64,000 bases of DNA, from the IMG/VR virus record IMGVR_UViG_3300042691_027241, positions 11,563-75,562 of that record. One strand, given 5' to 3'. The stretch's first letter is position 1, and each line of letters begins with the position of its first letter. Position numbers and translations under genes: made by a program. The stretch comes from a virus. Below, piece by piece: positions 38,110-63,430 of this stretch. Under the pieces are notes generated by a model. It did not search any database. It was given only the letters and a program-made list of their open reading frames with translations, and was not told where the DNA came from.

Positions 38110-38117
38110 CATAAATA
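38110..38117 (+). promoter_or_regulatory. Putative late promoter CATAAATA
   Basis: Intergenic, identical to the motif before gp6; upstream of a GGAG SD. Confidence 0.55.
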
Positions 38118-40734: not shown

Positions 40735-40749
40735 TTAGCAACTAATTAT

Positions 40750-40778
40750 TTGACTTTATTATGGGTAGAATGTAAAAT
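40750..40778 (+). promoter_or_regulatory. Putative sigma70-type promoter (TTGACT-N17-TAAAAT) for the modification cluster
   Basis: Near-consensus -35 at 40750-40755 and -10 at 40773-40778 with a 17-nt spacer. Confidence 0.6.
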
Positions 40779-40801
40779 AACATCTACCCATTTCTTTTTT
40801 T
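40761..40801 (+). terminator. Rho-independent terminator ending the tail operon
   Basis: Stem ATGGGTAGA(A)TGT / ACATCTACCCAT followed by a T-rich tract (TTCTTTTTTT). Confidence 0.7.
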
Positions 40802-40804
40802 ACT

Positions 40805-41119
40805 ATGAACGAATTAGATGACTTAGTTGCCGAAATCAAGCAGGCAACCGACTACCAGGCCAATAAAAGAACTCTTCGAGAAAAGATTCAAACTGACCTA
40901 CACATGACGCATAATGGTGGATTATTTAAAATTACACCAGAATTATTAGCTTTTGTTAAAACTTGGTCTATTGATGAATTATACTTGGAAGATGTTTATG
41001 AAAATCCTATCAAAATTGACAGACAAGTTTTTTTAGTAACTGCACAACAACATTATCAAACGGTCATGAATGAGTGGCATCAACAACATGAATATCTCAA
41101 GAAACAGCGAAGAATCTAA
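40805..41119 (+). CDS. Hypothetical protein
   Basis: 104-aa ORF, first gene after the promoter/terminator. Confidence 0.7.
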   Translation: MNELDDLVAEIKQATDYQANKRTLREKIQTDLHMTHNGGLFKITPELLAFVKTWSIDELYLEDVYENPIKIDRQVFLVTAQQHYQTVMNEWHQQHEYLKKQRRI

Positions 41120-41903
41120 AGGCGTTGTATTATTTGCTTTTAATACGGATTCAGTTGATTACGTTGCTATAGCAGATAGGTGTGCTTTGCTTGTTTCTAA
41201 GTTTTTAGAACTACCTGTAACTTTAATAACAGATAAAACTTCTTCTCCAGAATTCGAGTATGATCATATTATACGATTAGATTACACTGGTGCTAATCAG
41301 CGCACTGATGTCGTGACAAAAAAACAAGTCCAGTGGAAAAATTTTCATAGGCATAGTGTTTATCAACATACGCCTTATGATAATACTCTCATGATTGATA
41401 CAGATTATGTGGTATTAGATACCTCATTGCTAAAACTATTTGATCAGACGTATGATTATTTGATACAGGGCAAGAGTAACGATTTTAAACATTCAATGCC
41501 TGCGCGAATGGGAAATATTGGACTACCGTATGTTTGGGCTACAGTAGTTTTATTTAGAAAGACACCTAAAAGCAAACTATTTTTTAATCTGGTTGGACGT
41601 ATACAAAGAAACTGGGGCTATTATAGAAGTTTGTTTAATGTCGATGGCGCACAATACAGAAACGACTTTGCATTTGCAATGGCAAATATTATACTTAATG
41701 GGTATAGTCTTGACAAACGAAATCTCATTCCGTGGCACATGCTTACTATATCCGAAGAAATCACTGCAATAAACATAAAGGATAACATGTTAATAATACG
41801 AACTCCCGACAAAGCTTACATGATTCCGAAACATAATATACACGTAATGCACAAGCAATATTTGTTAACTGAAAATTATTTACAACTGATTAATAATGTT
41901 TAA
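41088..41903 (+). CDS. Putative GT-A glycosyltransferase (GT8-like)
   Basis: GVVLFAFN...YVAIA; TPYDNTLMIDTDY DxD motif; RNDFAF. ORF track starts at 41070. Confidence 0.6.
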   Translation: MNISRNSEESKGVVLFAFNTDSVDYVAIADRCALLVSKFLELPVTLITDKTSSPEFEYDHIIRLDYTGANQRTDVVTKKQVQWKNFHRHSVYQHTPYDNTLMIDTDYVVLDTSLLKLFDQTYDYLIQGKSNDFKHSMPARMGNIGLPYVWATVVLFRKTPKSKLFFNLVGRIQRNWGYYRSLFNVDGAQYRNDFAFAMANIILNGYSLDKRNLIPWHMLTISEEITAINIKDNMLIIRTPDKAYMIPKHNIHVMHKQYLLTENYLQLINNV

Positions 41904-42729
41904 TCACAAAGAACAACAAGGATTTTTAACTTTAGCCTACAATTCAAATAAAGTAGATTATTTAGAATTGGCTTATCTACAGGCAATGAGTATCAAGACG
42001 ACTATGCCTAATGCCAAAGTTGCTGTGGTTGTTGATTTTAAGACCAAGAAAAATGTAACCTCTAAAATTGAAAAAGTATTTGATTATATAATAGAAGGTA
42101 AAGACAGTGAATGGCCAATGCAAGTCGAACCAGATTTATTTTGGCTTACTCCGTTTAAGGAAACTATTAAACTTGAATCAGATTTATTAATTACACGTAA
42201 TATAGAACACTGGTGGCATGCTTTAAGATTGCGTAACGTGGTGCTAAGTACTCATTGTCGTAATACAGAGGATACAGTTGTTGTTGACACCGAATATAGA
42301 AAATTTTGGTCAGACAACAATTTGCCAAACATATACAATGGAATGATGTATTTTAGATATTCGCAAGAAGCCGCACTTTTTTTTAATACAGCTAAAAAAC
42401 TGTACAGGCATTATGATTATCTCAGAGATAACGTTTTGAAAAATTGTAGAGAAGAACACCCAAGTACAGATGTAATTTATTCAATCGCAGCAAAAATAGT
42501 TGGCATAGAAAATTGTACTATTCCCAGTTTAGATTTTTTTAATTTTGTACACATGAAAACACATATACAAAATTGGCCGGGACAAGTAGAATGGAATGAA
42601 TTGGTAGTATGTGAAATAGATCCGCCGGTGATTAGAATTAATAATCTCAATCAGTATAATCCTGTTCATTATCATGTTAAACACTGGCCAACAGACAGCA
42701 TAATAAATAGATATGAACACACCTCCTGA
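41896..42729 (+). CDS. Putative GT-A glycosyltransferase (GT8-like paralogue)
   Basis: YLELAYLQAMSIK; TPFKETIKLESDL (ExD in place of DxD); YNGMMYF; HYH. Confidence 0.6.
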   Translation: MFNHKEQQGFLTLAYNSNKVDYLELAYLQAMSIKTTMPNAKVAVVVDFKTKKNVTSKIEKVFDYIIEGKDSEWPMQVEPDLFWLTPFKETIKLESDLLITRNIEHWWHALRLRNVVLSTHCRNTEDTVVVDTEYRKFWSDNNLPNIYNGMMYFRYSQEAALFFNTAKKLYRHYDYLRDNVLKNCREEHPSTDVIYSIAAKIVGIENCTIPSLDFFNFVHMKTHIQNWPGQVEWNELVVCEIDPPVIRINNLNQYNPVHYHVKHWPTDSIINRYEHTS

Positions 42730-43069
42730 ATTAATTGAAGCCATTGGCTTAATTCGAGAAATTCCGCAGCCAAAAATAGAGTACAGAATACATTACGACA
42801 GTAAAGGATTTATTGTAAGTTGTACAATGATTGACCATCCAGACGATTCTAATTACATTGTAGTAGATCAAGAGACTTATGACAATTACTTTAGATATGA
42901 CAGAGTGATAAACGGAAAATTAAGAAAAATAATTCATGATCCGGGATATAGAGTACAATTACATCCAAGCACAAGCGGTTATAAAGTGATTAAAAATCAC
43001 GCAGCTTTACTTTTAGAAGAGAATGAACAATACAATGACACAGAATTCTACAATGGTTCAAATAATTGA
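42713..43069 (+). CDS. Hypothetical protein
   Basis: 118-aa ORF overlapping both neighbours. Confidence 0.7.
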   Translation: MNTPPELIEAIGLIREIPQPKIEYRIHYDSKGFIVSCTMIDHPDDSNYIVVDQETYDNYFRYDRVINGKLRKIIHDPGYRVQLHPSTSGYKVIKNHAALLLEENEQYNDTEFYNGSNN

Positions 43070-43979
43070 TATAGCAGATTTAGATTGTATATTTTTAACT
43101 TATGACGAACCTAAAAAAGAAGAGTTTTGGATCAAGATTCAAAACATGGTGCCGTGGGCAAAGAGAGTTGATGGAGTTAAAGGGTCTGATGCAGCGCATA
43201 AAGCAGCCGCCGCCGCCAGCGACACAGACCGTTTTGTTCTTGTTGACGGAGATAATATTCCGGACCCAGAATTTTTTAACTTACAACTATCGCTGGATGA
43301 AAGAAATCATGATCACGTTTTTAGATGGAAAGCACGTAACGTTATAAATGGTCTTAGATACGGAAACGGCGGCCTAAGCTGTTGGACAAAAGATTTTGTA
43401 AACAACATGCGTACACACGAAGCCAGTCTTGGCGATGAAGAAACTGCCGTTGAATTTTGTTTTAATCCAAAATACACAGCTATGCACAATTGTTATAGCA
43501 CAACCTATCCCAATGGTAGTGCTAAACAAGCATGGCGTGCAGGATTCAGAGAAGGTGTAAAAATGTGTCTTGACAGAGGACACAAACCTTCGTTGCAAGA
43601 ATTTGAAGAAGGTGTGAACAAACGTAATTATGATCACTTGTGTATCTGGCAAAGTGTGGGCGCAGATGTAGAAAATGGTTATTGGGCAATGTACGGTGCA
43701 AGATTAGGAACATACATGATTATGTTGGAAGGATGGGATTATCATCAGGTACAGGACTTTGATACACTGGAAATGTTATGGAATAGTTTCAGTAAGGAAG
43801 ATCCCAAAGAAGGATGCGAGAGAATCGAAAGTTCGTTAACAACAAGATTAGGATTACCTATCGTTACTTACACTCCCAAGCAAAGTCAATTTTTTAAGCA
43901 TCATTATAGTATTGGTCAACGCAACAGCGAGATTATGATGACCGAAATAGATGTTATACGTAGGATCGAAGGATGGTAA
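43053..43979 (+). CDS. Putative glycosyltransferase (GT-A-like)
   Basis: RVDGVKGSDAAH...FVLVDGDN DxD motif; YGNGG; AWRAGFREGVK. ORF track starts at 43023. Confidence 0.55.
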   Translation: MVQIIDIADLDCIFLTYDEPKKEEFWIKIQNMVPWAKRVDGVKGSDAAHKAAAAASDTDRFVLVDGDNIPDPEFFNLQLSLDERNHDHVFRWKARNVINGLRYGNGGLSCWTKDFVNNMRTHEASLGDEETAVEFCFNPKYTAMHNCYSTTYPNGSAKQAWRAGFREGVKMCLDRGHKPSLQEFEEGVNKRNYDHLCIWQSVGADVENGYWAMYGARLGTYMIMLEGWDYHQVQDFDTLEMLWNSFSKEDPKEGCERIESSLTTRLGLPIVTYTPKQSQFFKHHYSIGQRNSEIMMTEIDVIRRIEGW

Positions 43980-45008
43980 GTGTATAGACATGCCGAAATA
44001 GTGCATTGGATGCACAATAAAGAAACTCACGCAATCATACCGCAGCAGGTAGATATTGATCTGACTAATATTTGCAATCAAGATTGTTTCTATTGTAATT
44101 CCGCAGAACATAGAAAATTAGCACCTGTACAAAAACATTATACAGAATATATTCGATTACTTGATAAACTTGCTGCCTGGCGTGAGCATAGTCCACAGAG
44201 TTTTGGTAGCTTACATACTATTACCTACCCTGGTGGCGGCGAACCTACATTATTGCCCGGCTATGAAAATGTTATTGAACATACTATCAACTTAGGTTTC
44301 CTGACAAGTCTGACTACAAACGGTACGCAACTGGAACCACTAATAGAAAATGTTTCTGTAGATAAGTTACGTCAAATGGCATGGATTGGGATAGACATCG
44401 ACGCCGGCACTGAGGATCTATACGAAAAGATTCGACGCAGCATACCCAAGCGATCGCCATTTAGTAAAGTAATGCGTAATGCACAAGAATTAGTTCGCTT
44501 AGGTGTGAATGTGGATTTTAAAGTTTTATTAAATGAATATAACAATAATAAAAAAGCTATTGAAGATATTTTTAAACAATGTAAAGACGTTGGTGTTAGA
44601 TTACTTTACTTTAGACCTGCAATTATTAATAATCAGGCATATCCATGGGGCGAGGCAGAATGGAGCATGATAAATGAACTTTCTGCACAATACAAAGTAG
44701 AGTCTAAGTTTAATAAAACTAAAACAGAAACTAGGAACTACTCGCGATGTCACCAAATGTTTCAATTTCCGGTATTTTGTGCTGACGGTTACATTTATAC
44801 ATGCTGCGACAACAAAGGTAATCCCAACTTTGCCCTAGGTCGATGGGATGAGATGGATTTTAGAGATATATGGCTTAACGATCGTCATTACAACATTTAT
44901 GATAAAACAAATACTCATTTATGTCCGCCCTGCCGACCAAACAAACATAATATTGAAATTCAAAAAATTATTGACCAAAATAGTTTAATGGAAAATTTAT
45001 ACACATGA
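43980..45008 (+). CDS. Radical SAM protein with a C-terminal SPASM/twitch domain
   Basis: CNQDCFYC, GGGEP, TTNG; C-terminal C...ADGYIYTCC...LG...CPPC; GTG start. Confidence 0.88.
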   Translation: MYRHAEIVHWMHNKETHAIIPQQVDIDLTNICNQDCFYCNSAEHRKLAPVQKHYTEYIRLLDKLAAWREHSPQSFGSLHTITYPGGGEPTLLPGYENVIEHTINLGFLTSLTTNGTQLEPLIENVSVDKLRQMAWIGIDIDAGTEDLYEKIRRSIPKRSPFSKVMRNAQELVRLGVNVDFKVLLNEYNNNKKAIEDIFKQCKDVGVRLLYFRPAIINNQAYPWGEAEWSMINELSAQYKVESKFNKTKTETRNYSRCHQMFQFPVFCADGYIYTCCDNKGNPNFALGRWDEMDFRDIWLNDRHYNIYDKTNTHLCPPCRPNKHNIEIQKIIDQNSLMENLYT

Positions 45009-45361
45009 CTTTCTTTCCTGTAGTTGAATTAGTTGATCGTTATTCGATAGCTTGTTTAAAGTATGATAAAACTCATGCTAATCAAGAAGAAGTAGAATTT
45101 TATAAAAGCCAATTGAGCAATTACGATATTAGCTCTATAAACAGCGAGATTACAGAGTTATATAATATACATAGCCAAATATGGGATTTAGAATCTCAGT
45201 TAAAATCTGGAAAAGAACACGAACTACCACTAGACGAACTTGGACGCCGAGCAATCGCAATTAGAAATCTAAACAATAAAAGAATTAAGTTAAAAAACAT
45301 CGCAGCAGAAAAACTAGGATGTGTAGTAAGAGAAATTAAGAAGGACCATTTAAGTGAATAA
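45005..45361 (+). CDS. Small helical protein (DUF6165/DUF4254-like)
   Basis: VELVDRYSI..LK...IWDLE...AIRNLNNKRIKLKN pattern, as recalled for families found near glycosyltransferase genes. Confidence 0.55.
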   Translation: MTFFPVVELVDRYSIACLKYDKTHANQEEVEFYKSQLSNYDISSINSEITELYNIHSQIWDLESQLKSGKEHELPLDELGRRAIAIRNLNNKRIKLKNIAAEKLGCVVREIKKDHLSE

Positions 45362-46295
45362 GTTTACTATTATCCCTGCTGATATGTTTATTTGGAATAA
45401 AATTGAATTGTTACAATTTTTAATTAGCAATCAAAATAATCATATTTCTATTGACACAAATGAAGAAGGCTGTTGTGCCTATTCAATAGGTTTATATAAA
45501 TTATTAGATTTATTTGAATTTAAGTCAGTTACAATCAATACAAATAATATTTTAGAACATCACAAAAAATATAATATAACCGGTAGCAAATTTTTCAAAT
45601 TTTTTAACATAGGCAATAATAGTTACAAGGAATATCATGCTTGGAATGGAAATGCAGTATTCGGAGCATTTTATAATAGACCAATCTGGCACCGTCTTGG
45701 TTTAGCTGCCGAATTGTACGAACATAAAACTTTATTAAACTTTAGGGCCAATCCGCACAATGAAGATAATCGTGCTCTTTTTGAATTACAAAAACTATTT
45801 GAAGTGAGTCCAGAGTCTGCTAAAAAGTTGTTAAACCTTGCAAATAATTTTCCTAAACAGTTAGAAAGTTCAGATGGGTATACAGTAGGGGCTACGACAC
45901 AACAACACACCGATCAACTGTGCCAGTTTTACCCTAATATTTTTATTGATATAGTGGCAGAAACATTTGTCAACGGCCGTACTTTTTTTGTAACAGAAAA
46001 AACAGTTCGTCCTATGTTACTTAAAAAACCATTTATTATAATGGGTTCAAAAAATTTCATGATATATTTAAGGCAAATGGGATTTAAAACTTTTTACGAA
46101 TACTGGGATGAGGATTATGATGGCTTTGAAGGAAAAAACAGATATTTAAAAATACTAGATATAATTGACATGCTGGCCAAAAAAACACCAAATGAACTAG
46201 AAGAAATGTACAAATCAATGCAGAATATATTAGATCATAATTATAATTTGTTGGTCAATCAAATTTATAGTAAAAATATAACGCATGTCAATTAA
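45354..46295 (+). CDS. 'TEK' family protein, putative GT10-like glycosyltransferase
   Basis: IVAET...FVTEKTVRPM..KKPF..G...LRQMGFKTF..YWDEDYD C-terminal motif shared with three paralogues. Confidence 0.5.
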   Translation: MNKFTIIPADMFIWNKIELLQFLISNQNNHISIDTNEEGCCAYSIGLYKLLDLFEFKSVTINTNNILEHHKKYNITGSKFFKFFNIGNNSYKEYHAWNGNAVFGAFYNRPIWHRLGLAAELYEHKTLLNFRANPHNEDNRALFELQKLFEVSPESAKKLLNLANNFPKQLESSDGYTVGATTQQHTDQLCQFYPNIFIDIVAETFVNGRTFFVTEKTVRPMLLKKPFIIMGSKNFMIYLRQMGFKTFYEYWDEDYDGFEGKNRYLKILDIIDMLAKKTPNELEEMYKSMQNILDHNYNLLVNQIYSKNITHVN

Positions 46296-47142
46296 ACCAA
46301 CGCTGCCTTTTGTTGAAACAATGATTACACAGGCCTGCAATATCAGCTGTTTGGGCTGTACTAATTATAGCGATCTCAAGCATAACGGATATGTAAGTTG
46401 GAGGGAAGGAAAAAAACAAATTGAGGCTTGGTTAGATAGAATCAATATTCCAGATTTTGGAATAATGGGAGGAGAACCATTAATCAACCCTGAAGTAAAA
46501 GAATGGATCAAAGGTTGCAGAGAACTTTTACCAAATGCCCAAATTAGATTTACTACGAACGGCATACTGTTATCAAAACATTTTGATATAATAGACTTAA
46601 TGGCTGACATAGGAAACTGCGTATTTAAAATCACAGTACATACCGAGAGTGCAATTGTTCAAGAACTGATTGATAAAATTTTATCAAAATATACATGGAG
46701 TCCAGTAGTCGAACACGGAATTAATAGGTTTAAAACAGACAATAATTTAAGATTTCAAATTAGTCGTCCAGTTAGATTCGTTAAGACGTACCAAAACTCT
46801 TACAACAATATGCTTCCTTACAATAACGATCCTGTTAGTGCTTTTGATAATTGTTGTCAACAAACTTGCCCTCTTCTTTATAATGGCAACATATATAAAT
46901 GTAGTACATCAGGTTTACTTAAAGGAGTTTTAGAGAGGTTCAATTACCCAAATAAAGATTCTTGGGATCCTTATATCACAAACGGAATTTCTCCGGACTG
47001 CGATAATATTGAGTTACAGAAATTTATTGACAATTTTGGAAAACCACACTCGTTATTATGTGGACAATGTCCGACAGCTAACGATAGTAACATTGTTCAT
47101 TTAGAAAATGTTTATACAAAAAATGCACAGTTTAATTTCTGA
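46285..47142 (+). CDS. Radical SAM protein
   Basis: CNISCLGC, GGEP, TTNG; extra C-terminal Cys (CCQQTC, YKC, CGQC). Confidence 0.88.
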   Translation: MSIKPTLPFVETMITQACNISCLGCTNYSDLKHNGYVSWREGKKQIEAWLDRINIPDFGIMGGEPLINPEVKEWIKGCRELLPNAQIRFTTNGILLSKHFDIIDLMADIGNCVFKITVHTESAIVQELIDKILSKYTWSPVVEHGINRFKTDNNLRFQISRPVRFVKTYQNSYNNMLPYNNDPVSAFDNCCQQTCPLLYNGNIYKCSTSGLLKGVLERFNYPNKDSWDPYITNGISPDCDNIELQKFIDNFGKPHSLLCGQCPTANDSNIVHLENVYTKNAQFNF

Positions 47143-48163
47143 AGATACAAAAATTCATAACGAATATAAATTGGTAATTTATCTTTACCAATGCTTTGTT
47201 GAAGATAAAGATATCGTTATTGATTTTCATTTGGAAGGACCGTGTTGCTCTCGGAATAATTTATATAATATACTGGATGAATTTTGCAATGCTACAAAAT
47301 TTAATAAATCACGCATTAAAATTTATACAGGAAACGCCCTAGAACGTCACAGCGAATATGAAATAATTTTTAAACCTGAATATTGGTACGAGATCAAATT
47401 AATAAATGATTGGCTTAAAAACAATAGGTTAAACATTGATACAAAACCTCTAAAACATTTTGGTATTTTTATTGGACGATCATCCTGGTCTAGACTTTGG
47501 GCTTCGACTATACTTTATCGATATAAAGATAAAACATTACAAACTTTTCATAGTGGGTACGATCAGAACTATGTTGTTTCCAAATCTAATAATACTACAG
47601 ATTTTTTAGAACTTGACGAACTAAATAGATTTCGTTGTGATATTATTCCAGAAGTTACTCAATTTTTAAATCATTGTCCAATTAATCAAATAAATGATCT
47701 TGATGTAATTAAAAATACAAAAATGTTTATTGCAGCAAACAATAATTATTGTTTTCCTATTCAACACCCTGCTAATTTAAATATTCTAAAATGGTATAAC
47801 GATATTTGCATTGATGTAATTTGTGAAACCAGAACCGTTGGCAACGTATTTTTTGTAACTGAAAAAACATGGCGTTGCATAATAGCCAAGAAACCGTTTA
47901 TAATAGTAGGAGCCCCTCATTTTTTAAACAATCTAAAAAAATTAGGATTTAAAACATTTAATGATTATTGGAATGAAGGGTATGACGAATATCCACCTAG
48001 TCATCGAATAAAAGAAATAGAAAAACTTATAAACACACTGGCAAAAAAACCAATAATAGAAATGCATAATCTTTTAACACAAATGCAACCAACATTAGAA
48101 CACAATTATCAAACGTTTGTGTCTTTGACTTACAACAAAATACAGGAAATCTTCAATGAATAG
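47108..48163 (+). CDS. 'TEK' family protein, putative GT10-like glycosyltransferase
   Basis: VICET...FVTEKTWRCI..KKPF..G...LKKLGFKTF..YWNEGYD. Confidence 0.5.
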   Translation: MFIQKMHSLISEDTKIHNEYKLVIYLYQCFVEDKDIVIDFHLEGPCCSRNNLYNILDEFCNATKFNKSRIKIYTGNALERHSEYEIIFKPEYWYEIKLINDWLKNNRLNIDTKPLKHFGIFIGRSSWSRLWASTILYRYKDKTLQTFHSGYDQNYVVSKSNNTTDFLELDELNRFRCDIIPEVTQFLNHCPINQINDLDVIKNTKMFIAANNNYCFPIQHPANLNILKWYNDICIDVICETRTVGNVFFVTEKTWRCIIAKKPFIIVGAPHFLNNLKKLGFKTFNDYWNEGYDEYPPSHRIKEIEKLINTLAKKPIIEMHNLLTQMQPTLEHNYQTFVSLTYNKIQEIFNE

Positions 48164-48974
48164 ATTTTTTGCATTTGGTTGCAGTTTTACTAAATCTAAT
48201 AGAGATTCAACTTGGGCAGACATTCTTGGCGCTCAATTTGATTATTATGAAAATTGGGGACAACCAGGTGCAGGAAATAGTTTTATATTTTATAGTCTAA
48301 TAGAATGTTGTAAACGCAACAAAATTAACAAAGATGATACAGTTGCAATTATGTGGACTAGCATTGGAAGAGAAGATAGATTTATACAAGGGAAAGGATG
48401 GATCACCCCGGGCAGTATTTATAATCAGAATGTTTATCCAATTGACTTTGTAAAACAATTTGCAGATCCTACAGGATATTTACTTAGAGATTTGGTACAT
48501 CTATCTGCGGCGAGAAAAATTCTACAAGAGATTGGTTGTAAATATTATTTTTTTAGTGTTGTGCCTTTGAAAATTTTTGATGACAATACGCATAACTATT
48601 TTGACATTGAAACTAGTATAATTGAGCTGTATAAGGATGATTTGTTTGAGGTAAAACCTAGTGTATATGAGGTCGTATTCAACAATAATTGGTACAGCCG
48701 TCCGGGAAAAGTTGATATTGATTTAGTTAAGAATGAATATATAAATCTTAGAGGCAACGAATGGCCCTCGTGGGAAAAATTTGTACTAAGAGAATTTGAC
48801 GGCGTTTCTAAAACAATATTAAAAGAGATCGATGAAAAGTATAATTTGTCAAACAAACTTTTAATTAGATCAGATACGCACCCTACTGCCAATGAAAGTC
48901 ATGAATATCTATTAAAAGTTTACGGTAAGTTAGAAAAAAAATTTAGTAAATCACGTGAGGTCATCAGATTCTAA
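48156..48974 (+). CDS. SGNH/GDSL-like hydrolase or acyltransferase
   Basis: FGCSFT block I, PGAGN block II, DTHPT block V. Confidence 0.6.
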   Translation: MNRFFAFGCSFTKSNRDSTWADILGAQFDYYENWGQPGAGNSFIFYSLIECCKRNKINKDDTVAIMWTSIGREDRFIQGKGWITPGSIYNQNVYPIDFVKQFADPTGYLLRDLVHLSAARKILQEIGCKYYFFSVVPLKIFDDNTHNYFDIETSIIELYKDDLFEVKPSVYEVVFNNNWYSRPGKVDIDLVKNEYINLRGNEWPSWEKFVLREFDGVSKTILKEIDEKYNLSNKLLIRSDTHPTANESHEYLLKVYGKLEKKFSKSREVIRF

Positions 48975-56012: not shown

Positions 56013-56683
56013 TTGCTATTGTTGGATCAAATGGATTAATTGGTAGTTATCTTAAAGAGGTAATAGCATACACGCATGAATTTAATTCTAATAACATAAA
56101 AAGCATTAGTAATTATGTATTTGATACAGTTTACATTGCGGCACCTAACGGTAATAGATTGACAGCCAACGCCAACCAAGATAAAGATTTTGAAAGTGTA
56201 CAGACACTGGTTGAAAATTTAAGACGTACTTCAATTGACCGTGTTGTGCTAATAGGAACGGTAGATAGCGTATTAAGAAATAATTTTCCTTACGGTCGTA
56301 ATAGGCTTTGGCTTGAAGAACAAATTTTGCATTATTTTGATAAATCGCATGTGTTGCGTTTAAGTGCTCTTATACATAAAAATATTAAAAAAAATATTTT
56401 ATACGATCTCAAACATAATGTATATTTAGATAAAATAAACTCAAATGGAATTTTACAATGGTACGATCTCAATAATTTAGAAAAAGATATACGTCAATCA
56501 ATTGACAATCAAACACAAATAATTAATTTAGTTTCTGAACCAATATACAATTTTGAAATAGTAGAAAAGTTTTTTCCACATTTAAAACTTGCCACGCAAA
56601 ATCCAGTGCGAGTATCTTTGTATCCTTGGATTTACACTAAAGAGCAAATTTTTCAGTCTATAGAAACATATTTAAATGAATAA
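56009..56683 (+). CDS. NAD(P)-dependent epimerase/dehydratase-like protein (short SDR)
   Basis: N-terminal GSNGLIG Rossmann motif; YGRNR in place of YxxxK. Confidence 0.7.
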   Translation: MIAIVGSNGLIGSYLKEVIAYTHEFNSNNIKSISNYVFDTVYIAAPNGNRLTANANQDKDFESVQTLVENLRRTSIDRVVLIGTVDSVLRNNFPYGRNRLWLEEQILHYFDKSHVLRLSALIHKNIKKNILYDLKHNVYLDKINSNGILQWYDLNNLEKDIRQSIDNQTQIINLVSEPIYNFEIVEKFFPHLKLATQNPVRVSLYPWIYTKEQIFQSIETYLNE

Positions 56684-57986
56684 ACCTGATACATTATGTA
56701 TGGCACCGTGGACCCACACATATCTAAGTCCACAAACTGAAAGAAGACTTTGTTGTGCAAGCCGCGAATCCGCAACCAATTTTCAGCAGTATATTGACAG
56801 CAATGCCGGGACAGGTAATTACATTCCTGTAACACTTGAACAGCATTGGAACAGTGATCATATGCGTAGTGTACGTCGCCGTATGATGGCCGGAGAAGTT
56901 TTACCTGAGTGCGAAGTATGTAATAATAAATTGCTTAACACTGACGTTTACCGTAGTTATTTCAACAATTTATTCCAACATAAGTATTTGCAAGTGCTTG
57001 AAAGTACTGACGAAACAGGTTATACAACCATGAAACCTGTTAGTTGGGATTACAGATTTAGTAATCTTTGTAACTTTAAATGTCGTATGTGTGGCGACAT
57101 GTTGTCAAGTTCGTGGGAAAGCGAACAAAGACAACATGATATGATCGATTGGTCCAATCCAAAAAACAATTGGATGAATCCTGAAATCAAAAAACAAATT
57201 GAACATTTCCAGACTAATCAAGTTGAAGCCGAGTTTGCAGCAGCAGTAGAGGACCACCGTGTAGAAGAAGTTTATTGGGTGGGGGGAGAACCGTTAATGT
57301 ACGAACAACATTGGCGGTACATGCAGCGTATTATAGAACTGGGAGACGGACCACGTGTTTATGCTCGATACAATACTAATCTTAGCCGCGTTAGTTATAG
57401 AGGTTGCAATCTTTATAAAGATGTACTCGCTTATTTGCGTGATTGGCAAATTTGTGCCAGCATTGACGGAACAGGAGCGATTGGAGAATATATCAGAACA
57501 GGCCTCGATTATCAAGCATGGCTTGAAAACTTTAAAGCAGGAGTTGCAATCGCTAAACACCGGAGACAAATGAGATTAGACTTCACACTTACCTTACCTG
57601 GTATGTTTGAGGTATTAAATATACAGCAGTTAGCTAAAGATTTGGGCGTTGACATCCTTGCTAAGGTTGTCTTTAGTTTTACACCAGACATAGTTATGTC
57701 GCCTTTATCCCTACCAAGATCAATTTTAGATGCCTGGGTAGATGAAATATTAAACGCCGGAGTAGCCGGACCATTAAAGGATATCTTAGTTCAGTTAAAA
57801 ACACGCCCTACCTTTCAAGAACAATATGGTACAGATGCTTATATCAAAGGTGTTGCAAAAGGCAAGGCTCGTGTGTTACAATTAGAATCTATTCGTAGTC
57901 AATCTATAACTATGGATCAAATATTATCAAAGAGAGCAGATGTATATGAGTGGTGGAATTCGATCAGTCAAAGTTGTTCTACGTAA
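56676..57986 (+). CDS. Radical SAM protein with an N-terminal twitch/SPASM-type domain
   Basis: CMAPW...LCC...CEVC; CNFKCRMC; GGEP; YNTN. Confidence 0.9.
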   Translation: MNKPDTLCMAPWTHTYLSPQTERRLCCASRESATNFQQYIDSNAGTGNYIPVTLEQHWNSDHMRSVRRRMMAGEVLPECEVCNNKLLNTDVYRSYFNNLFQHKYLQVLESTDETGYTTMKPVSWDYRFSNLCNFKCRMCGDMLSSSWESEQRQHDMIDWSNPKNNWMNPEIKKQIEHFQTNQVEAEFAAAVEDHRVEEVYWVGGEPLMYEQHWRYMQRIIELGDGPRVYARYNTNLSRVSYRGCNLYKDVLAYLRDWQICASIDGTGAIGEYIRTGLDYQAWLENFKAGVAIAKHRRQMRLDFTLTLPGMFEVLNIQQLAKDLGVDILAKVVFSFTPDIVMSPLSLPRSILDAWVDEILNAGVAGPLKDILVQLKTRPTFQEQYGTDAYIKGVAKGKARVLQLESIRSQSITMDQILSKRADVYEWWNSISQSCST

Positions 57987-59094
57987 TCCGTTAATTAAAA
58001 GTGATCAAATTGACTATACTATAGAACTAAATGATAGTCAATTAGCACAGGATTGGGCAGAAGCATTAAAAAAAGAACTCGTTAAAAAACGTTTACTTGA
58101 AAAAAATTTTTGTTTCATGGGATTCCCTCATACCCCAAGAAATTTGTCCTATCTGTGCAAAGAGTTAAATGACTCGGTGTACAGAATTAATGTGTTTAAT
58201 AGAACAAAGATCTGGGAAACAATGGGATTAAAACCTTTTGTAATTGATGACTTTTATGTTCCGGATTCTATTAGATTCGGTGATGAATATCCTATAGGAT
58301 GGGATGAATCAAATTTGGGATTAAGTATTAAACATGAAGTTATGAATAGACTTCATAATTATTTTGAGATATTACAAGGAACTGTTGAAAATTTAAGTCC
58401 TTATTATAAGTACGCCGATTACACTACAAAATACGCAATTAGACAACTAAACAATTTATGTCACGAAATAGAAAACTTATGTCTCAGCCAGCGTAAGCAG
58501 GCTACTGCGGCAGAATGGATACGTCCGAGTCAGATCACGACTTTTCTGCATGCAGAACGTTATATACTAACAGACGAGCATAAACAGGGTTTTATAACTA
58601 ATGGGTATGATAGAGTATTTGGCGGTGTTTATATGCATTGGACTCAAATTGGAAAAACACTGTTTGAAGTTTTTCGAGATGAAGGTGCGCCAAAGTTAAC
58701 TGATACAGTATGCGAAGCAATTACAGAGCTAAAATACTACAGTGGAGAATTTGATGTTGAATGGGGAAAGAGTGTGGTCTATAATGGAGCGCACGAATGG
58801 CATAACAAACAAATGAATGAATTTTATAAATGGTTAGAAACAAATAATAAACGAATTGATGATACTAATTTAAGTTTAGGGTATCTTCCTTTAGGACAGG
58901 TAAATCTTAGTGCAAGTTTTGGCACATTACACGAAGCCACTGTGCAACAAATTTTGAGTAATTATTTAGACATTCACAAAATTGAAGTAGATGGTATTTT
59001 GAATACATATGATTATTGTTGGAGCGACTATAATTACAAACAAATGCAAATTGATATGATGAAACCAGGATATGATTATACTAGCAGCCGGTGA
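57940..59094 (+). CDS. Hypothetical protein
   Basis: 384-aa ORF in the operon; no recognised motif. Confidence 0.75.
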   Translation: MYMSGGIRSVKVVLRNPLIKSDQIDYTIELNDSQLAQDWAEALKKELVKKRLLEKNFCFMGFPHTPRNLSYLCKELNDSVYRINVFNRTKIWETMGLKPFVIDDFYVPDSIRFGDEYPIGWDESNLGLSIKHEVMNRLHNYFEILQGTVENLSPYYKYADYTTKYAIRQLNNLCHEIENLCLSQRKQATAAEWIRPSQITTFLHAERYILTDEHKQGFITNGYDRVFGGVYMHWTQIGKTLFEVFRDEGAPKLTDTVCEAITELKYYSGEFDVEWGKSVVYNGAHEWHNKQMNEFYKWLETNNKRIDDTNLSLGYLPLGQVNLSASFGTLHEATVQQILSNYLDIHKIEVDGILNTYDYCWSDYNYKQMQIDMMKPGYDYTSSR

Positions 59095-59869
59095 TAGTTT
59101 TATATATGGAAACGAGTTACAATCACCAAATAATACTTTTACCTCAATACTCGGTAGAGATTATGAATATAAATGTGTAGCTTGGCCAGGTATTGGTAAT
59201 GATAGTATAGCAAGACGAACAATTAGTGCAATAGAAAAACACTTGTCCGAAGAACTGTTTGTTATTGTGTGTTGGACTTTTCCAGGTAGATATGAGTTTA
59301 AATTTACATACGATACCGGGCAACTTACAAGAGATTGGTATGCAATTACACCGTGGACTATAAAAGATAAACAGTATGTAGAAAAAGAATTTGTAAGTAA
59401 AGACGAAAAGGTATTAAAAGATCACAATGATAATTTTAATCGTGCGAAGCTTTCTGGAGTTTACACTTTTGCATCATTGTTTTATAAACATGTAGGAGCA
59501 GGTGAATATTGGGAAGTGTATTCTACGTTAAAAGAAATAGTGTATCTTCAAAATTACTTAAAAGTCAATAATATTAAATATTTGTTTACTTGTGCAGACA
59601 ATAATTTTTTATACAATGCAACAATAGATGGGCATGACGACACGATACAAAGTTTGTATAGACAAATAGTAGAAGATCAAGAATCTTGGTTTTGGTTTCC
59701 GGCTGGAATTAAACCCAATGAAACACAGACTCCAAGAGGATTTTATCAATGGGCACTTGAAAACAAATACCCAATAGGAACAACTCACCCTCTTGAACAA
59801 GCACATATAGACGCAGCAGATTTACTTAAGGAGAAATTCAATGACATGGTTAAAAAACATTTGGAATAG
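59072..59869 (+). CDS. SGNH/GDSL-like hydrolase or acyltransferase
   Basis: AGDSFIYG, PGIGN, THPLEQAH. Confidence 0.65.
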   Translation: MIILAAGDSFIYGNELQSPNNTFTSILGRDYEYKCVAWPGIGNDSIARRTISAIEKHLSEELFVIVCWTFPGRYEFKFTYDTGQLTRDWYAITPWTIKDKQYVEKEFVSKDEKVLKDHNDNFNRAKLSGVYTFASLFYKHVGAGEYWEVYSTLKEIVYLQNYLKVNNIKYLFTCADNNFLYNATIDGHDDTIQSLYRQIVEDQESWFWFPAGIKPNETQTPRGFYQWALENKYPIGTTHPLEQAHIDAADLLKEKFNDMVKKHLE

Positions 59870-59942
59870 AATTGTATTAGAAATACGTTATCGAAGAAAA
59901 TTACGTGAATTACGTAAACGAGATCCATTTATCTATAAATGA
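59841..59942 (+). CDS. Small basic 33-aa peptide MTWLKNIWNRIVLEIRYRRKLRELRKRDPFIYK
   Basis: Below the ORF-track cutoff; AAGGAG SD upstream; fills the gap between two SGNH genes; ATGA-coupled to the next gene. Confidence 0.7.
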   Translation: MTWLKNIWNRIVLEIRYRRKLRELRKRDPFIYK

Positions 59943-60592
59943 AAAAAAGATTATTAACTGTAGGCGATAGTTTCACCTACGGTGACGAATTAGATAACCC
60001 AGCGGATACAGCATGGCCGGCATTAGTAGCTGCTGCACTTGATTCTACACTTACTAACTTAGGGAAACCAGGACGTGGCAATACACACATGGTTAGAACA
60101 GTCGTAGAAGAATCAAATAACTTTGATGCAGTTATTGTAGCATGGAGTCATTTTGATAGAATTGAAATAGCCGACGAATATGATATATTTGATACATGGC
60201 CCGGGAGAATTAATGTACCATTTAAACATCAATATCCATGGCGAGCAAATGTAACTGATTATTATAGTAGACACCATAATGATGATTATCTATATAGACA
60301 ATACTTGTTAAACATTGTACTTGTACAATCATATTTAAAACTTAATAACAAACCTTATTTGATGTTTGATGTATTTGGAAATCATCAAGACCTAAGACGA
60401 ACCGACGAACGCAACAATGATTTAATTAAACAAATTGATACACAGTATTTTATAGGATGGCCCGATGAAGCAATGGTGGATTGGATGGGCGATTGTCTTA
60501 AGGGTCCAAGAGGGCATCCATTAGAACTTGGTCATCAACAAACAGCAGAACATATCAATGAATATATTAGGAATATCAGCTGGCTTTCATGA
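59939..60592 (+). CDS. SGNH/GDSL-like hydrolase or acyltransferase
   Basis: VGDSFTYG, NLGKPGRGN, GHPLELGH. Confidence 0.68.
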   Translation: MKKRLLTVGDSFTYGDELDNPADTAWPALVAAALDSTLTNLGKPGRGNTHMVRTVVEESNNFDAVIVAWSHFDRIEIADEYDIFDTWPGRINVPFKHQYPWRANVTDYYSRHHNDDYLYRQYLLNIVLVQSYLKLNNKPYLMFDVFGNHQDLRRTDERNNDLIKQIDTQYFIGWPDEAMVDWMGDCLKGPRGHPLELGHQQTAEHINEYIRNISWLS

Positions 60593-62039
60593 CGCCGCAG
60601 TTAGTGTAATTAATACACAAGGCGATATACTATTTGCTGCTCATAGCGAACGCTATAGCAAGTCGAAGAACGACTCAAACATCTGTCGCACATTAATGGA
60701 TGATGTGATGAACTACTTTCCTATTCATCATGTTGCATATTATGAATCTCCATGGAAGAAGCAATTACGTAGGTTATATAGCGGCGAAGGGATAGAGTGG
60801 AATCAACTATCTACCAAGAAAATCTTAACAGAACAGTTTGGAGGATGGGCACACATTCCCAGTTATAGTTCTCATAATCATCATCTCAGTCATGCAGCAG
60901 CCGGATTTCAAACCAGTACGTATGATCGTGCCACAGTGGTTGTTATTGATGCTATAGGAGAATGGGATACTATCAGTATATATGGTGCAGAATATGATAG
61001 ACGTGGTTATGCACAATATAAAAAATTATGGTCGCAACAATATCCCCACAGTATTGGCTTGTTTTATTCTGCCATGACACAAAGAGTTGGTCTTAAGCCC
61101 AACGAAGACGAATATATTCTAATGGGAATGTCAGCGTACGGAAGAACAGGACATGCTGCATCTATGCAAGATGCATTAATCAATAACGAATGGAATGTGA
61201 CGTTTAAGCACAATTTACATGCCGGGGCAGACCGCACATTTATGCAAGATATACACGATGCTGATATAGCTGCTGCTGCACAAAAGACTGTAGAAAATTT
61301 AATTTATAATGTAATGCGTCGCGCAAGAGATTTTAACTGGAGTACAAATCTTGTTTATATGGGAGGTGTAGCATTAAATTGTTTAGCGAATAGGAATCTT
61401 GGTGAATACTTTGAAAACGTTTGGATTATGCCTAATCCTGGTGATGCTGGTAGCAGCCTTGGTGCTGCCGCACTTAAATATGGGCGTCGTATTAATTGGG
61501 TCAATGCTTATCTTGGTCACAATATTCCGGGACCGTATCCGGTTACATCCATACTTGATAGTTTACTATCTGACGGCATTTGTGGTGTTGCTAATGGTCG
61601 CGCAGAGTTTGGTCCACGTGCTTTAGGCAATAGAAGTTTATTAGCAGACCCAAGAGGTCCACATATCAAGGATAAAGTAAATGAAATTAAACGCAGACAA
61701 AAGTTTAGACCTTTCGCCCCTGTTATATTGGAGGAGATGGCTGATCAGTACTTTGATTTCCGCAGTGGGTGGAGTAATAGCCGTTATATGCAGTCAGTCG
61801 CTCAGTGCAGGTATCCTGACCGTTTTCCTGCTATCTGTCATTATGATGGGACCAGTCGAGTACAAACGGTTCCGGCAGATGGTTCGGGAATCAGAGAACT
61901 GTTAGAAAAATGGTTCGTACTTACCGATTGCCCTATGTTGCTTAATACCAGTTTGAATATCAAAGGCGAACCCATGGTTAATGACCGGACCGATGCAGAT
62001 AGATTTGAAGTTAAATACGGTGTACGGGTGTTTTCATGA
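60558..62039 (+). CDS. O-carbamoyltransferase (NodU/CmcH family)
   Basis: ILGISAGFHDAA, ERYSK.K, HHLSHAA, GGVALNC, GDAG, EFGPRALGNRS, KRRQKFRPFAP, DGTSRVQTV, LNTSLN. ORF track starts at 60528. Confidence 0.93.
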   Translation: MNILGISAGFHDAAVSVINTQGDILFAAHSERYSKSKNDSNICRTLMDDVMNYFPIHHVAYYESPWKKQLRRLYSGEGIEWNQLSTKKILTEQFGGWAHIPSYSSHNHHLSHAAAGFQTSTYDRATVVVIDAIGEWDTISIYGAEYDRRGYAQYKKLWSQQYPHSIGLFYSAMTQRVGLKPNEDEYILMGMSAYGRTGHAASMQDALINNEWNVTFKHNLHAGADRTFMQDIHDADIAAAAQKTVENLIYNVMRRARDFNWSTNLVYMGGVALNCLANRNLGEYFENVWIMPNPGDAGSSLGAAALKYGRRINWVNAYLGHNIPGPYPVTSILDSLLSDGICGVANGRAEFGPRALGNRSLLADPRGPHIKDKVNEIKRRQKFRPFAPVILEEMADQYFDFRSGWSNSRYMQSVAQCRYPDRFPAICHYDGTSRVQTVPADGSGIRELLEKWFVLTDCPMLLNTSLNIKGEPMVNDRTDADRFEVKYGVRVFS

Positions 62040-62455
62040 CAAAACGAATACTTATAATGGGGTTGCCGGGTGCAGGTAAAACGACCTTGGCTTTGAATCT
62101 AATTAATTATCTACAGCCCGATGTGATCTGGCTTAACGCCGACGAAGTTAGAAAAAAATATAATGATTGGGATTTTAGTTCAGAGGGAAGACTCAGGCAA
62201 AGCACAAGAATGAGAGAGTTAGCAGACAAGGCACAAACAAAATATGTTATAGCAGACTTTGTTTGTCCTTTGCCTGAGATGAGAGGAATCTATGATCCTC
62301 ACTTTACAATTTGGTTGGATACTATAATCGAAAGCAGATTTCAAGACACCAATCAAGTATTTGTTGCACCAGATTATTATAATGTAAGAGTTACCGAACA
62401 AGATGCAGGCAGATGGGCAAAGGAAATATATGAACAAATATCACATAAGATTTAA
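62036..62455 (+). CDS. cysC: Adenylylsulfate kinase-like P-loop kinase
   Basis: MGLPGAGKTTLA, LNADEVR, DFS.EGR pattern of CysC-like kinases; shorter than canonical CysC. Confidence 0.65.
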   Translation: MTKRILIMGLPGAGKTTLALNLINYLQPDVIWLNADEVRKKYNDWDFSSEGRLRQSTRMRELADKAQTKYVIADFVCPLPEMRGIYDPHFTIWLDTIIESRFQDTNQVFVAPDYYNVRVTEQDAGRWAKEIYEQISHKI

Positions 62456-63005
62456 TCATCAACATAATGGTAGCGGTAAAGTGTGGCGTGTGTTTGAGAA
62501 CGGAACAGAATATTTAGTAGAGCATTTAGATATTCGTGTTCCTATGCGCGATGACATAACGATCGAAAACGGAATTGAAAAATGGAACATTTACTGTGAA
62601 GGCTACTTGAGCATCACAAATGAAACTGCTCAAATTGATGATAGTCCAACATTTGATTGGCGCAAGCCTACAGTGCAGATGTTAGGTCGTTGGCAACCTT
62701 GGCATGCAGGTCATCGAGCTCTGTTTGAACGTGCAATAAAGAAAACAGGACAAGTCTGTATTATGATTCGAGATTGTCAAGCTTGGAATCATAGTAATCC
62801 TTTTGATTTAGATGAAGTTAAAAAATATATCCGTGCAGATCTTGATCCTGTATATAAAGGTATGTACGAAATTGTTATTGTTCCTAACATTGTTAATATA
62901 ACATATGGTCGCGATGTAGGTTATATCATTGAACAAGAAACATTTGATGATGCAACTCAAGCTATATCGGCAACTGCTATTCGTAAACAAATGGGCGTTA
63001 AATGA
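62430..63005 (+). CDS. HIGH-superfamily nucleotidyltransferase (cytidyltransferase-like) with an extra N-terminal domain
   Basis: MLGRWQPWHAGH, SNPF and ISATAIR motifs; AAGGA SD before ATG 62430. Confidence 0.75.
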   Translation: MNKYHIRFNHQHNGSGKVWRVFENGTEYLVEHLDIRVPMRDDITIENGIEKWNIYCEGYLSITNETAQIDDSPTFDWRKPTVQMLGRWQPWHAGHRALFERAIKKTGQVCIMIRDCQAWNHSNPFDLDEVKKYIRADLDPVYKGMYEIVIVPNIVNITYGRDVGYIIEQETFDDATQAISATAIRKQMGVK

Positions 63006-63430
63006 AAGAAAAATTTAAACAGGCCTATATGCAAACTGCAAAAACTTTTGCAGAATTAAGTCATGCCCGTAGATTAAAAGTTGGCGCAATAATTGTTAAA
63101 GAAGATAGAATTATCAGCATTGGGTATAACGGCATGCCAGCCGGCTGGTCCAATGTGTGTGAAGATATAGAAGAAGACGGATCATTAAAAACAAAGCCAG
63201 AAGTATTACATGCTGAGTCAAATGCAATCGCTAAACTTGCTAAGAGTAACGAGTCCGGCACCGGTGCGTCTTTGTTTGTTACTCACAGCCCTTGCCTTGA
63301 GTGCGCCAAATTAATTTATCAGAGTGGAATTACGAACGTTTTTTACGGTCAGAGTTATCGAGATACTGCTGGTGTTGAATTCTTACAAAAGTCTAAAGTT
63401 TTGATTGTGCAATTGAATCCTGAAGATTAG
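63002..63430 (+). CDS. dCMP deaminase
   Basis: KVGA, GYNG, HAESNAI and PCLEC zinc motifs. Confidence 0.92.
   Translation: MKEKFKQAYMQTAKTFAELSHARRLKVGAIIVKEDRIISIGYNGMPAGWSNVCEDIEEDGSLKTKPEVLHAESNAIAKLAKSNESGTGASLFVTHSPCLECAKLIYQSGITNVFYGQSYRDTAGVEFLQKSKVLIVQLNPED

Follow-up and report, generated by a model that had tools for sequence, protein, structure and literature searches.

The viral record IMGVR_UViG_3300042691_027241 of IMG/VR is 75.5 kb long, and the stretch of 64,000 nucleotides analysed here (the window) corresponds to its bases 11563–75562. CheckV gives the record a completeness of 22%, which implies a genome of about 340 kb and therefore a jumbo phage. Downstream of large + strand structural genes, which include one for a 4730-aa protein and several for fibre-like proteins, window positions 40805–63430 hold a block of genes for radical S-adenosylmethionine (SAM) enzymes, glycosyltransferase-like proteins, SGNH-like proteins and an O-carbamoyltransferase, which is the subject of this analysis. 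Counted by script from the list of open reading frames (ORFs), the block consists of 27 co-directional genes on the + strand (Table 1; genes are named by the first base of their frame), including a 33-codon ORF that had been missed in a preliminary description of about 25 such genes. The gaps at the junctions within the block range from −53 to 0 nt, that is, all genes overlap or abut and the coding fraction is 1.0. ATGA overlaps were found at all seven sites where they had been described (45005, 52563, 53879, 56009, 59939, 62036 and 63002).

The GC and GC3 values of the block agree with those of the structural genes and the rest of the phage, and recent horizontal acquisition of the block was rejected on this ground. 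A collection of 50,697 phage records, searched by Megablast with the entire block, gave no match, hence no isolate in that collection is similar to it at the DNA level, and literature searches for published work on this type of operon gave nothing relevant. The related loci referred to below come from a scan of viral contigs with the protein encoded by 52563, which returned 24 loci, several of them on contigs of 289–374 kb; an equivalent scan of genome contigs found no relative.

The products of the block all appear soluble, as the Kyte–Doolittle mean over 19 residues is below 1.6 in every protein and there is no obvious membrane segment. Among the family matches of 26 block products we recognised no flippase, polymerase, polyprenyl-phosphate transferase or signal-peptide protein, no protease, exporter or transporter family, no scaffold-forming enzyme (cyclase, polyketide synthase or non-ribosomal peptide synthetase) and no self-resistance gene.

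Table 1. Features of the block and of its borders, in window coordinates, with the evidence for each assignment
Feature	Position	Strand	Evidence or remark
Control region	40735..40804	+	promoter scan and sequence; sole non-coding stretch at the operon boundary
Conserved 104-aa protein, first operon gene	40805..41119	+	no family match; homologues in 13 related loci
GT8-like (GT-A) protein, paralogous pair	41070-41903	+	paralogy; family profile versus glycogenin-1
GT8-like (GT-A) protein, paralogous pair	41896-42729	+	paralogy; family profile versus glycogenin-1
118-aa protein, moderately conserved	42713..43069	+	no family assignment
318-aa protein, invariant DGD (DxD-like), possibly GT2-like	43023..43979	+	alignment, Atlas name
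Radical SAM with C-terminal SPASM domain	43980..45008	+	accessory; of the 24 related loci, in this contig only
118-aa protein	45005..45361	+	no family assignment; only in this contig among related loci
GT-B 'TEK' paralogue 1	45354..46295	+	AlphaFold model (pLDDT 77.8), GT-B superposition
Small radical SAM, 285 aa	46285..47142	+	Radical_SAM and Fer4_12; accessory, in 2/24 related loci
GT-B 'TEK' paralogue 2	47108..48163	+	30% identity to 45354, E 2e-34
SGNH-like protein, GCSFT block I	48156..48974	+	accessory; BLAST paralogue of 59939; about 4 loci
N-terminal-twitch radical SAM	48974-50356	+	NF033640, 307.6 bits
SGNH-like protein	50328-51224	+	motifs only; only in this contig; interrupts the N-twitch array
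N-terminal-twitch radical SAM	51175-52566	+	NF033640, 288.6 bits
N-terminal-twitch radical SAM	52563-53882	+	NF033640, 406.6 bits
N-terminal-twitch radical SAM	53846-55087	+	NF033640, 358.0 bits
GT-B 'TEK' paralogue 3	55080..56012	+	paralogy, alignment
224-aa protein, Rossmann-like GxxGxxG N-terminus	56009..56683	+	3 related loci
Fifth N-terminal-twitch radical SAM	56676..57986	+	NF033640, 279.4 bits
384-aa protein, highly conserved, cyclophilin-like beta-barrel with large helical insert	57940..59094	+	model (pLDDT 87.1)
SGNH-like protein a, GDS block I	59072..59869	+	BLAST paralogue of 59939; homologue in RsoM2USA cassette
33-codon ORF, basic helical peptide, near-invariant C-terminus ...RKRDPFIYK	59841..59942	+	conservation
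SGNH-like protein b (DUF6071)	59939..60592	+	DUF6071, 36.5 bits (cut-off 27)
NodU/CmcH-type O-carbamoyltransferase	60558..62039	+	Carbam_trans_C 157.6 bits, Carbam_trans_N 126.2 bits
P-loop kinase, APS-kinase-like	62036-62455	+	family searches
Small HxGH nucleotidyltransferase, NMNAT/cytidylyltransferase-like	62403-63005	+	weak family matches and motif
dCMP deaminase, last gene	63002..63430	+	dCMP_cyt_deam_1, 83.5 bits; syntenic in relatives
Fourth GT-B 'TEK' paralogue, C-terminal part	63393..64000, runs off the window	-	BLAST to 45354, E 2e-22

The control region in front of the block contains a predicted sigma-70-type promoter (TTGACT at 40750–40755, a 17-nt spacer and TAAAAT at 40773–40778) and a hairpin with the arms GGGTAGA (40763–40769) and TCTACCC (40783–40789), which is followed by a run of T (40790–40801) and has the −10 hexamer in its loop. 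Both hexamers are conserved in position 5′ of the homologue of 40805 in all 13 related loci in which it is found, and the hairpin arms covary: their sequence differs among these loci while complementarity is kept. We read the hairpin as a putative terminator of the fibre genes that overlaps the operon's own promoter. A hairpin with a −10 hexamer in its loop could couple termination to initiation, or could be a regulatory site.

The sequence CATAAATA occurs twice in the 64 kb (8 copies expected by chance), at 15078–15085 and 38110–38117, in both cases 20–30 nt 5′ of a structural gene (15106 and 38139, respectively), and TATAAATA is depleted (1 found versus about 10 expected). We take CATAAATA for a probable late promoter of T4 type, a motif that the rest of the sequence seems to avoid. 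The block lacks this motif and has the sigma-70-type promoter instead. We conclude that the operon is probably insulated from the late fibre genes, with its own predicted promoter of a host type and early-like character.

Radical SAM enzymes and glycosyltransferase-like proteins

Seven proteins had been described as radical SAM enzymes by their CxxxCxxC motif, and all seven indeed combine the motif with a match to Radical_SAM of Pfam, which in two cases lies below the Pfam cut-off. Five of them belong to NCBIfam family NF033640 (N_Twi_rSAM, twitch domain-containing radical SAM protein; cut-off 170 bits), matching its 398-position model end to end, from positions 1–2 to 387–398. In all five the CxxxCxxC motif lies at residues 132–155. 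The N-terminus matches SPASM of Pfam in 52563, 53846 and 56676, and its Cys pattern is reduced or partial in 48974 and 51175. The five proteins are mutual paralogues of 21–31% identity that keep a fixed order in related loci, and the duplications behind them appear to be ancient. Matches of the radical SAM enzymes to specific peptide-maturase families of NCBIfam were all far below the cut-offs.

The family is abundant in metagenomes. For 52563 alone, the close relatives amount to more than 7000 protein clusters, and a profile of the five paralogues found 5558 clusters (at 50% identity) with E ≤1e-30 among 1.84 billion representatives. Many of the metagenomic proteins contain two or three copies fused in tandem and are 800–1466 aa long, which echoes the tandem gene arrays of phages. 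Other members are fused to GT2, GNAT, Peptidase_S8, Sel1 or TPR domains.

The proposed three GT-A-like proteins fared less uniformly. The paralogues 41070 and 41896 are weakly GT8-like: neither has a Pfam match, and their family profile matched glycogenin-1 with E 0.0024 (20.7 bits) over the N-terminal ~100 positions only, a segment that spans the DxD region. For 43023, the assignment goes back to the DGD motif and to an automatic name, 'Glycosyltransferase 2-like', of a neighbouring cluster in the ESM Atlas, where its other neighbours are viral clusters without a Pfam family; its profile found no match among PDB sequences, with chance-level DppA rows only. Within the block, conservation is highest in this protein (65–90% identity across loci, 150 invariant columns).

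The three proteins that share a TEK-like motif with an invariant E-K in the alignment were correctly recognised as paralogues, and modelling adds a GT-B fold. The family has no sequence match in Pfam, NCBIfam or PDB chains. However the model of 45354 was compared, GT-B enzymes came first: nearly all top VIA rows are GT-B, and so are nearly all of the weak Foldseek rows from PDB. The highest VIA Z values were those of T4 beta-glucosyltransferase (10.1), T4 alpha-glucosyltransferase (9.0) and GT10 fucosyltransferases (8.1–8.5); superpositions cover 200–250 residues (213–249 for the matches with Z of 10.1, 9.0 and 8.5). Many other GT-B enzymes score a Z of about 8, close to these values, so that donor and acceptor cannot be read from the fold. 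TEK proteins are common in uncultured phages, and one viral member in the structure library is fused to a UDP-glucose/GDP-mannose dehydrogenase domain. The fourth paralogue is convergent with the operon, and its homologues in relatives occupy the same place, on the opposite strand.

The carbamoyltransferase, its micro-ORF and the remaining proteins

The assignment of 60558 as a NodU/CmcH enzyme was confirmed by both Pfam domains, which exceed the gathering scores (24 bits for Carbam_trans_N and 27 bits for Carbam_trans_C), and by profile matches to NovN, GdmN and TobZ at E values from 1e-84 to 1e-55 (NovN, 8.6e-84 over profile positions 10–477). Its segment HHLSHAAAG aligns with HHLAHAMS (HHxxH motif), and H108, H109 and H112 are invariant. 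The solved relatives carbamoylate hydroxyls, which in the case of NovN and TobZ are those of sugars. The longest ORF of the phage gene opens with a TTG at 60528, but its likely start is the ATG at 60558, since this is where homologues begin; automatic calls probably add 10 spurious residues.

The 33-codon ORF (micro-ORF) overlaps both of its neighbours and varies at its N-terminus. It is conserved in 21 of the 24 related loci and in the cultured phage RsoM2USA described below, and a degenerate DNA pattern for K-x-DPFIYK-stop was found in at least 120 viral stretches. We listed 80 such loci, 65 of which have a downstream ORF; in 38 of these 65 the micro-ORF is directly 5′ of a carbamoyltransferase gene, and most of these pairs overlap by 4 nt. 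In other phages, a gene of the 43023 family is often found beside the pair as well. No DPFIYK peptide was found by the lone carbamoyltransferases of cyanophages S-CAM8, P-SSM2 and C48C1. A predicted complex of the carbamoyltransferase with the 33-residue peptide scored 0.00, which is not evidence either way. Three loci (L045, L055 and L103) have long variants of 89–90 aa, in which a Cys/His-rich segment (CSCGH...C..C.C.HC.C) precedes the basic helix and the C-terminus; these do not adjoin a carbamoyltransferase gene.

Four SGNH-like proteins had been proposed, and a block I of GDS type and a C-terminal His-Pro are seen in all four (59072, 59939, 48156 and 50328), with the Asp of the triad not evident. 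Of the four, 59939 alone exceeds the cut-off of a family, DUF6071, and it matches Lipase_GDSL_2 below cut-off (22.8 versus 32.9 bits); 59072 and 48156 are its paralogues by BLAST, and for 50328 the proposal comes down to the motifs. A short-chain dehydrogenase/reductase assignment of 56009 was not confirmed: the protein has no Pfam, PHROGs or NCBIfam match, and its GxxGxxG-like N-terminus is accompanied by YGRNR instead of YxxxK. The structural model of 57940 superposes on cyclophilins with a VIA Z of 7–8.8 over about 140 residues, and its alignment has 105 invariant columns. The model found no Foldseek match in PDB, the profile gave chance-level matches only against PDB sequences, and the only neighbours in the ESM Atlas were DSHCT proteins at chance level (~0.90).

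Near the end of the block, the proposed kinase proved to be P-loop and APS-kinase-like, and the proposed nucleotidyltransferase has an HxGH motif, its family matches being weak. Together they match the two halves of phrog_10255. The dCMP deaminase gene 63002 is probably not part of the tailoring set, being the first gene of an adjoining nucleotide-metabolism module.

Related phages and a bacterial counterpart

The gene order of the block is kept in more than 20 related jumbo-phage contigs, so the cluster is no chance arrangement. The shared order covers most of the block, with the five N-twitch radical SAM genes, 57940, two SGNH-like genes and the genes for the carbamoyltransferase and the dCMP deaminase, and it extends to the upstream fibre genes (38139 and 39802). 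The genes 43980, 45005 and 50328 are found only in this contig among the related loci, and 46285, 48156 and 56009 in a few of them. Synteny had been suggested as a check on the link to fibres, and it bears the link out: in relatives the cluster is directly 3′ of 38139 and 39802, and linkage to a fibre-like gene is seen even in Ralstonia phage RsoM2USA.

Among isolates, only RsoM2USA, a cultured phage with a genome of 344 kb, carries a large part of the system, which is split there into two modules. The front module (216–223 kb) comprises a fibre-like gene, a homologue of 40805, two GT8-like genes, a homologue of 43023, an N-twitch radical SAM gene and a second homologue of 43023, and lies directly 3′ of the genes for the tail sheath and other virion proteins. 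The back module (123–128 kb) comprises genes for an N-twitch radical SAM enzyme (50% identical to 51175), an SGNH-like protein, the micro-ORF, another SGNH-like protein and a carbamoyltransferase (44% identical). In RsoM2USA the carbamoyltransferase gene is ORF199, the micro-ORF is flanked by ORF200 and ORF201, and ORF202 and ORF349 encode radical SAM enzymes. The link of the front module to structural genes thus survives a large evolutionary distance, and the back module is separable.

A Sel1-fused N-twitch radical SAM protein was found in an Elusimicrobiota genome (G009). A first locus of this bacterium has an N-twitch gene together with three SGNH/GDSL genes (two of them TPR-fused), two genes for B12 radical SAM enzymes, a GT4 gene and several genes for TPR proteins. 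A second has, in this order, genes for a B12 radical SAM enzyme, a GT2, a flavin amine-oxidase-like protein, an N-twitch radical SAM enzyme, a B12-binding protein, a GT4, a GT1-like protein, a carbamoyltransferase and a SPASM radical SAM enzyme. The enzyme mix of the phage is therefore found again in a glycosyltransferase-rich bacterial locus; the DPFIYK micro-ORF was not found in either locus. The N-twitch family is rare in Elusimicrobiota (2 of 201 genomes), and the neighbours of the copy in the second genome (G187) were uninformative. The first genome also has an unusually dense island of radical SAM genes, with about a dozen radical SAM-like frames and an N-twitch gene in some 30 kb (G009:C14:42000-71700).

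Elsewhere in the phage record, the − strand holds another radical SAM cassette, at window positions 1–2732 and in the record bases before the window. It includes a B12-binding match at window positions 1811–2098, which at 18.3 bits is weak and below the cut-off, and a further radical SAM frame at record bases 9804–10106, 5′ of the window. Among the structural genes, the 4730-aa protein is encoded by a single ORF (window 18402–32594), a Gly_rich_2 domain is present in the 1095-aa fibre (34409–37696) and a Peptidase_G2 intramolecular-chaperone domain in that of 549 aa (38139–39788).

What the pathway may make

We tentatively favour, with a probability of roughly 0.45, a reading of the block as a cytoplasmic pathway that tailors a glycan from nucleotide sugars, with virion proteins, namely the fibres, as the probable acceptor. 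The pathway would be self-contained, and would both build and edit an unusual glycan from nucleotide-activated sugars. The GT-A-like proteins (the two GT8-like proteins and the DxD protein) and the GT-B TEK proteins would move the sugars. The five fixed N-twitch and the two accessory radical SAM enzymes would perform C–H chemistry on them (epimerisation, deoxygenation or oxidation) or form C–C bonds, the SGNH-like proteins would put on or take off O-acyl groups, and the NodU/NovN-type enzyme would O-carbamoylate a hydroxyl, while the kinase and the nucleotidyltransferase would provide an activated precursor. The operon would be transcribed from its own host-type promoter, before the late structural genes or independently of them, and the most likely acceptors would be the neighbouring Ser/Thr/Asn-rich fibre proteins, modified prior to assembly. 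Gene content, family and fold assignments, gene order, the conserved promoter, the solubility of the products and the bacterial counterpart come directly from the analysis; the sugar substrate, the reaction of each enzyme and the acceptor are inferences.

A glycan pathway is favoured by the glycosyltransferases, the sugar-related fusions, the glycosyltransferase-rich bacterial counterpart and the position after fibre-like genes. With no membrane segment and no match to a flippase or polymerase, the acceptor should be cytoplasmic, namely virion proteins before assembly, DNA, a peptide or a small molecule. The glycan part of the initial proposal is thus partly supported, by the GT8-like and GT-B proteins, the GT2 and dehydrogenase fusions, the carbamoyltransferase and the bacterial loci; the fibre acceptor goes beyond this evidence.

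Several observations weigh against the glycan reading. The operon has its own predicted promoter and no copy of CATAAATA, and so would not be co-regulated with the fibres. No classical nucleoside diphosphate-sugar synthesis gene was identified in the block. Literature searches found no published reaction or substrate for the NF033640 family, so sugar editing by these enzymes is a prediction, and the fusions to Peptidase_S8, Sel1 and TPR, together with the bacterial loci filled with TPR proteins, mean that protein substrates would fit too. The best structural matches of the TEK model are DNA glucosyltransferases, those of T4. Within the carbamoyltransferase family, the one phage enzyme that has been characterised acts on 5-hydroxymethylcytosine (5hmC) in DNA (PMC8670742). 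Another jumbo-phage lineage, whose contigs are likewise pieces of very large genomes, has the micro-ORF–carbamoyltransferase pair by itself between the genes for a Toprim primase and a DnaB-like helicase. Finally, the sugar, the glycan and the glycoprotein of the pathway are themselves predictions.

The last three of the specific points lead to the foremost alternative, hypermodification of DNA, which we consider unlikely. The glycosyltransferases, carbamoyltransferase and radical SAM enzymes would then decorate a base or nucleotide precursor and shield the genome from host nucleases, with a product resembling the glucosyl-hmC of T4 or 5-carbamoyloxymethylcytosine. The preliminary description had named this as the main alternative, and it deserves more weight than it was given there, since a phage NodU-like carbamoyltransferase is proven to convert 5hmC to 5-carbamoyloxymethylcytosine and is active alone (Yang et al., eLife 2021, PMC8670742). 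In addition, the carbamoyltransferase gene is two genes from that of the dCMP deaminase, relatives have a thymidylate synthase gene about 6–8 kb outside the cluster loci that were retrieved, the promoter is of an early type, and the products all appear soluble. In contigs with the known modification, the carbamoyltransferase co-occurs with Asp177 thymidylate-synthase homologues, PRA-PH and dCMP deaminase; in unmodified contigs, carbamoyltransferases are flanked by glycosyltransferases (PMC8670742), which counts against modification of DNA here.

The thymidylate synthase provided a sharper comparison. Three related genomes, 80–100% complete, have one homologue each; in all three the motifs are PPCH (His147) and PFNIASY (Asn177), the C-terminus is ...MAV, and true synthases are matched at 1e-85. 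With Asn177 they are not the Asp177 dCMP hydroxymethylase of the known pathway, and Asn177 together with His147 marks a canonical synthase, so that this lineage offers no support for the known 5hmC route; if its DNA is modified, another chemistry may be involved. No thymidylate-synthase homologue was found in the 75-kb contig itself, which is 22% complete, or in five contigs with the primase–peptide–carbamoyltransferase arrangement, which are only 12–29% complete. Of the three relatives, one has a PRA-PH/MazG-like gene, which is over 30 kb away from the cluster, and the relatives' genomes gave no TET/JBP match, which argues weakly since the control was silent as well. The hydroxymethylase that the carbamoyltransferase precedent requires was not found in the complete relatives. 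Further points against this alternative are that the bacterium has the same enzyme mix within glycosyltransferase-rich loci, that in RsoM2USA the front module has kept its place beside structural genes, and that DNA and non-DNA GT-B enzymes are separated by only 1–2 Z units in their match to the TEK model.

Modification of a peptide or protein without a glycan core is in our view distinctly improbable. A polypeptide would here be the direct substrate of the radical SAM enzymes, of the cyclophilin-like protein and of the carbamoyltransferase, either the 33-residue peptide, as a precursor of RiPP or cofactor type comparable to PqqA or MftA, or the fibre proteins. The widespread, translationally coupled micro-ORF, with its invariant DPFIYK and variable N-terminus, would fit such a role, as would the cyclophilin-like fold of 57940 and the Peptidase_S8, Sel1 and TPR fusions of N-twitch relatives. 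Radical SAM enzymes with SPASM or twitch domains are typically peptide maturases (compare the weak NCBIfam matches), and HypF is a carbamoyltransferase that acts on a protein C-terminus, that of HypE. However, the micro-ORF tracks the carbamoyltransferase and not the radical SAM enzymes, as the pair between primase and helicase illustrates, and seven glycosyltransferase-like genes, six in the block and one convergent, would be left unexplained. Of the marks of a cluster for ribosomally synthesised and post-translationally modified peptides, a candidate peptide is present, but the family matches include no maturase above cut-off and no protease or transporter.

A variant with a slightly lower chance still is that the pathway builds on the peptide as its scaffold or carrier, in analogy with HypF and with PqqA and MftA, peptides that are turned into cofactors. 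Its DPFIYK C-terminus would be carbamoylated and, in the large operons, it would also be radical-edited and glycosylated, giving a phage-made glycoconjugate or cofactor that derives from a peptide and would be of an undescribed kind.

The preliminary description had also offered the host surface as a target, and remodelling of lipopolysaccharide, capsule or S-layer glycan, for example against superinfection or re-adsorption of progeny to debris, is very unlikely. It is true that temperate phages modify O-antigen, that the enzyme mix is like that of bacterial loci for tailoring surface polysaccharides and that the promoter is of an early type, but no block protein has an obvious membrane segment, the family matches include no flippase, polymerase, polyprenyl-phosphate transferase or signal-peptide protein, and the conserved linkage to fibre-like genes would be left unexplained. 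Least probable of all is that the block makes a natural product resembling an aminoglycoside or a nucleoside, a small molecule that would diffuse and help the phage against its host or competitors. This might be suggested by NovN, GdmN and TobZ, which tailor antibiotics and are the solved enzymes closest to the carbamoyltransferase, by radical SAM twitch enzymes such as BtrN, which belong to aminoglycoside pathways, and by the kinase and nucleotidyltransferase of the block. Against it, the family matches include no scaffold-forming enzyme, exporter or self-resistance gene, the number of glycosyltransferases suits an oligosaccharide better and the linkage to structural genes is conserved.

The jumbo phages of this group are abundant, and in them five N-terminal-twitch radical SAM enzymes form a fixed set with glycosyltransferases and a carbamoyltransferase. 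Identification of the product would assign a chemistry to these enzymes, a major orphan family, would reveal if radical-edited sugars are put on the fibres or on the DNA of giant phages, and would explain a widespread micro-peptide. Since cultured RsoM2USA carries both modules, the question is directly testable.

The components of the block can be compared with several known systems. The NF033640 proteins have the end-to-end family match, the CxxxCxxC motif and the Cys-rich N-terminal domain of a family that is otherwise only catalogued, and here form five paralogues in fixed order, two with a reduced N-terminal Cys pattern. The G009 loci contain the same mix of families; there, in contrast, the N-twitch copies are single and Sel1-fused and many TPR proteins are present. 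The TEK model shares its GT-B fold with the DNA alpha- and beta-glucosyltransferases of T4 and with GT10 alpha-1,3-fucosyltransferases, at an identity of only 7–12%. Like NovN, GdmN and TobZ, the phage carbamoyltransferase matches the profile over its full length and has both Pfam domains and HHxxH, but it is about 490 aa long and has a partner micro-ORF, whereas the solved enzymes have 576–700 aa. With the 5hmC carbamoyltransferase it shares the two-domain NodU/TobZ architecture, a nearby dCMP deaminase gene and (in relatives) a gene of the thymidylate-synthase family; it differs by the conserved micro-ORF, the flanking glycosyltransferases and the Asn177/His147 of the relatives' synthase.

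For the glycan reading, the nearest precedents are the glycosylated virions of mycobacteriophages (capsid and tail) and chloroviruses (capsid glycans). To our knowledge, these systems have few glycosyltransferases, with methyl- and acyltransferases, and no radical SAM array, carbamoyltransferase or micro-ORF. What we take them to have in common with the block is soluble, virus-encoded glycosyltransferases that are encoded beside structural genes and act in the cytoplasm.

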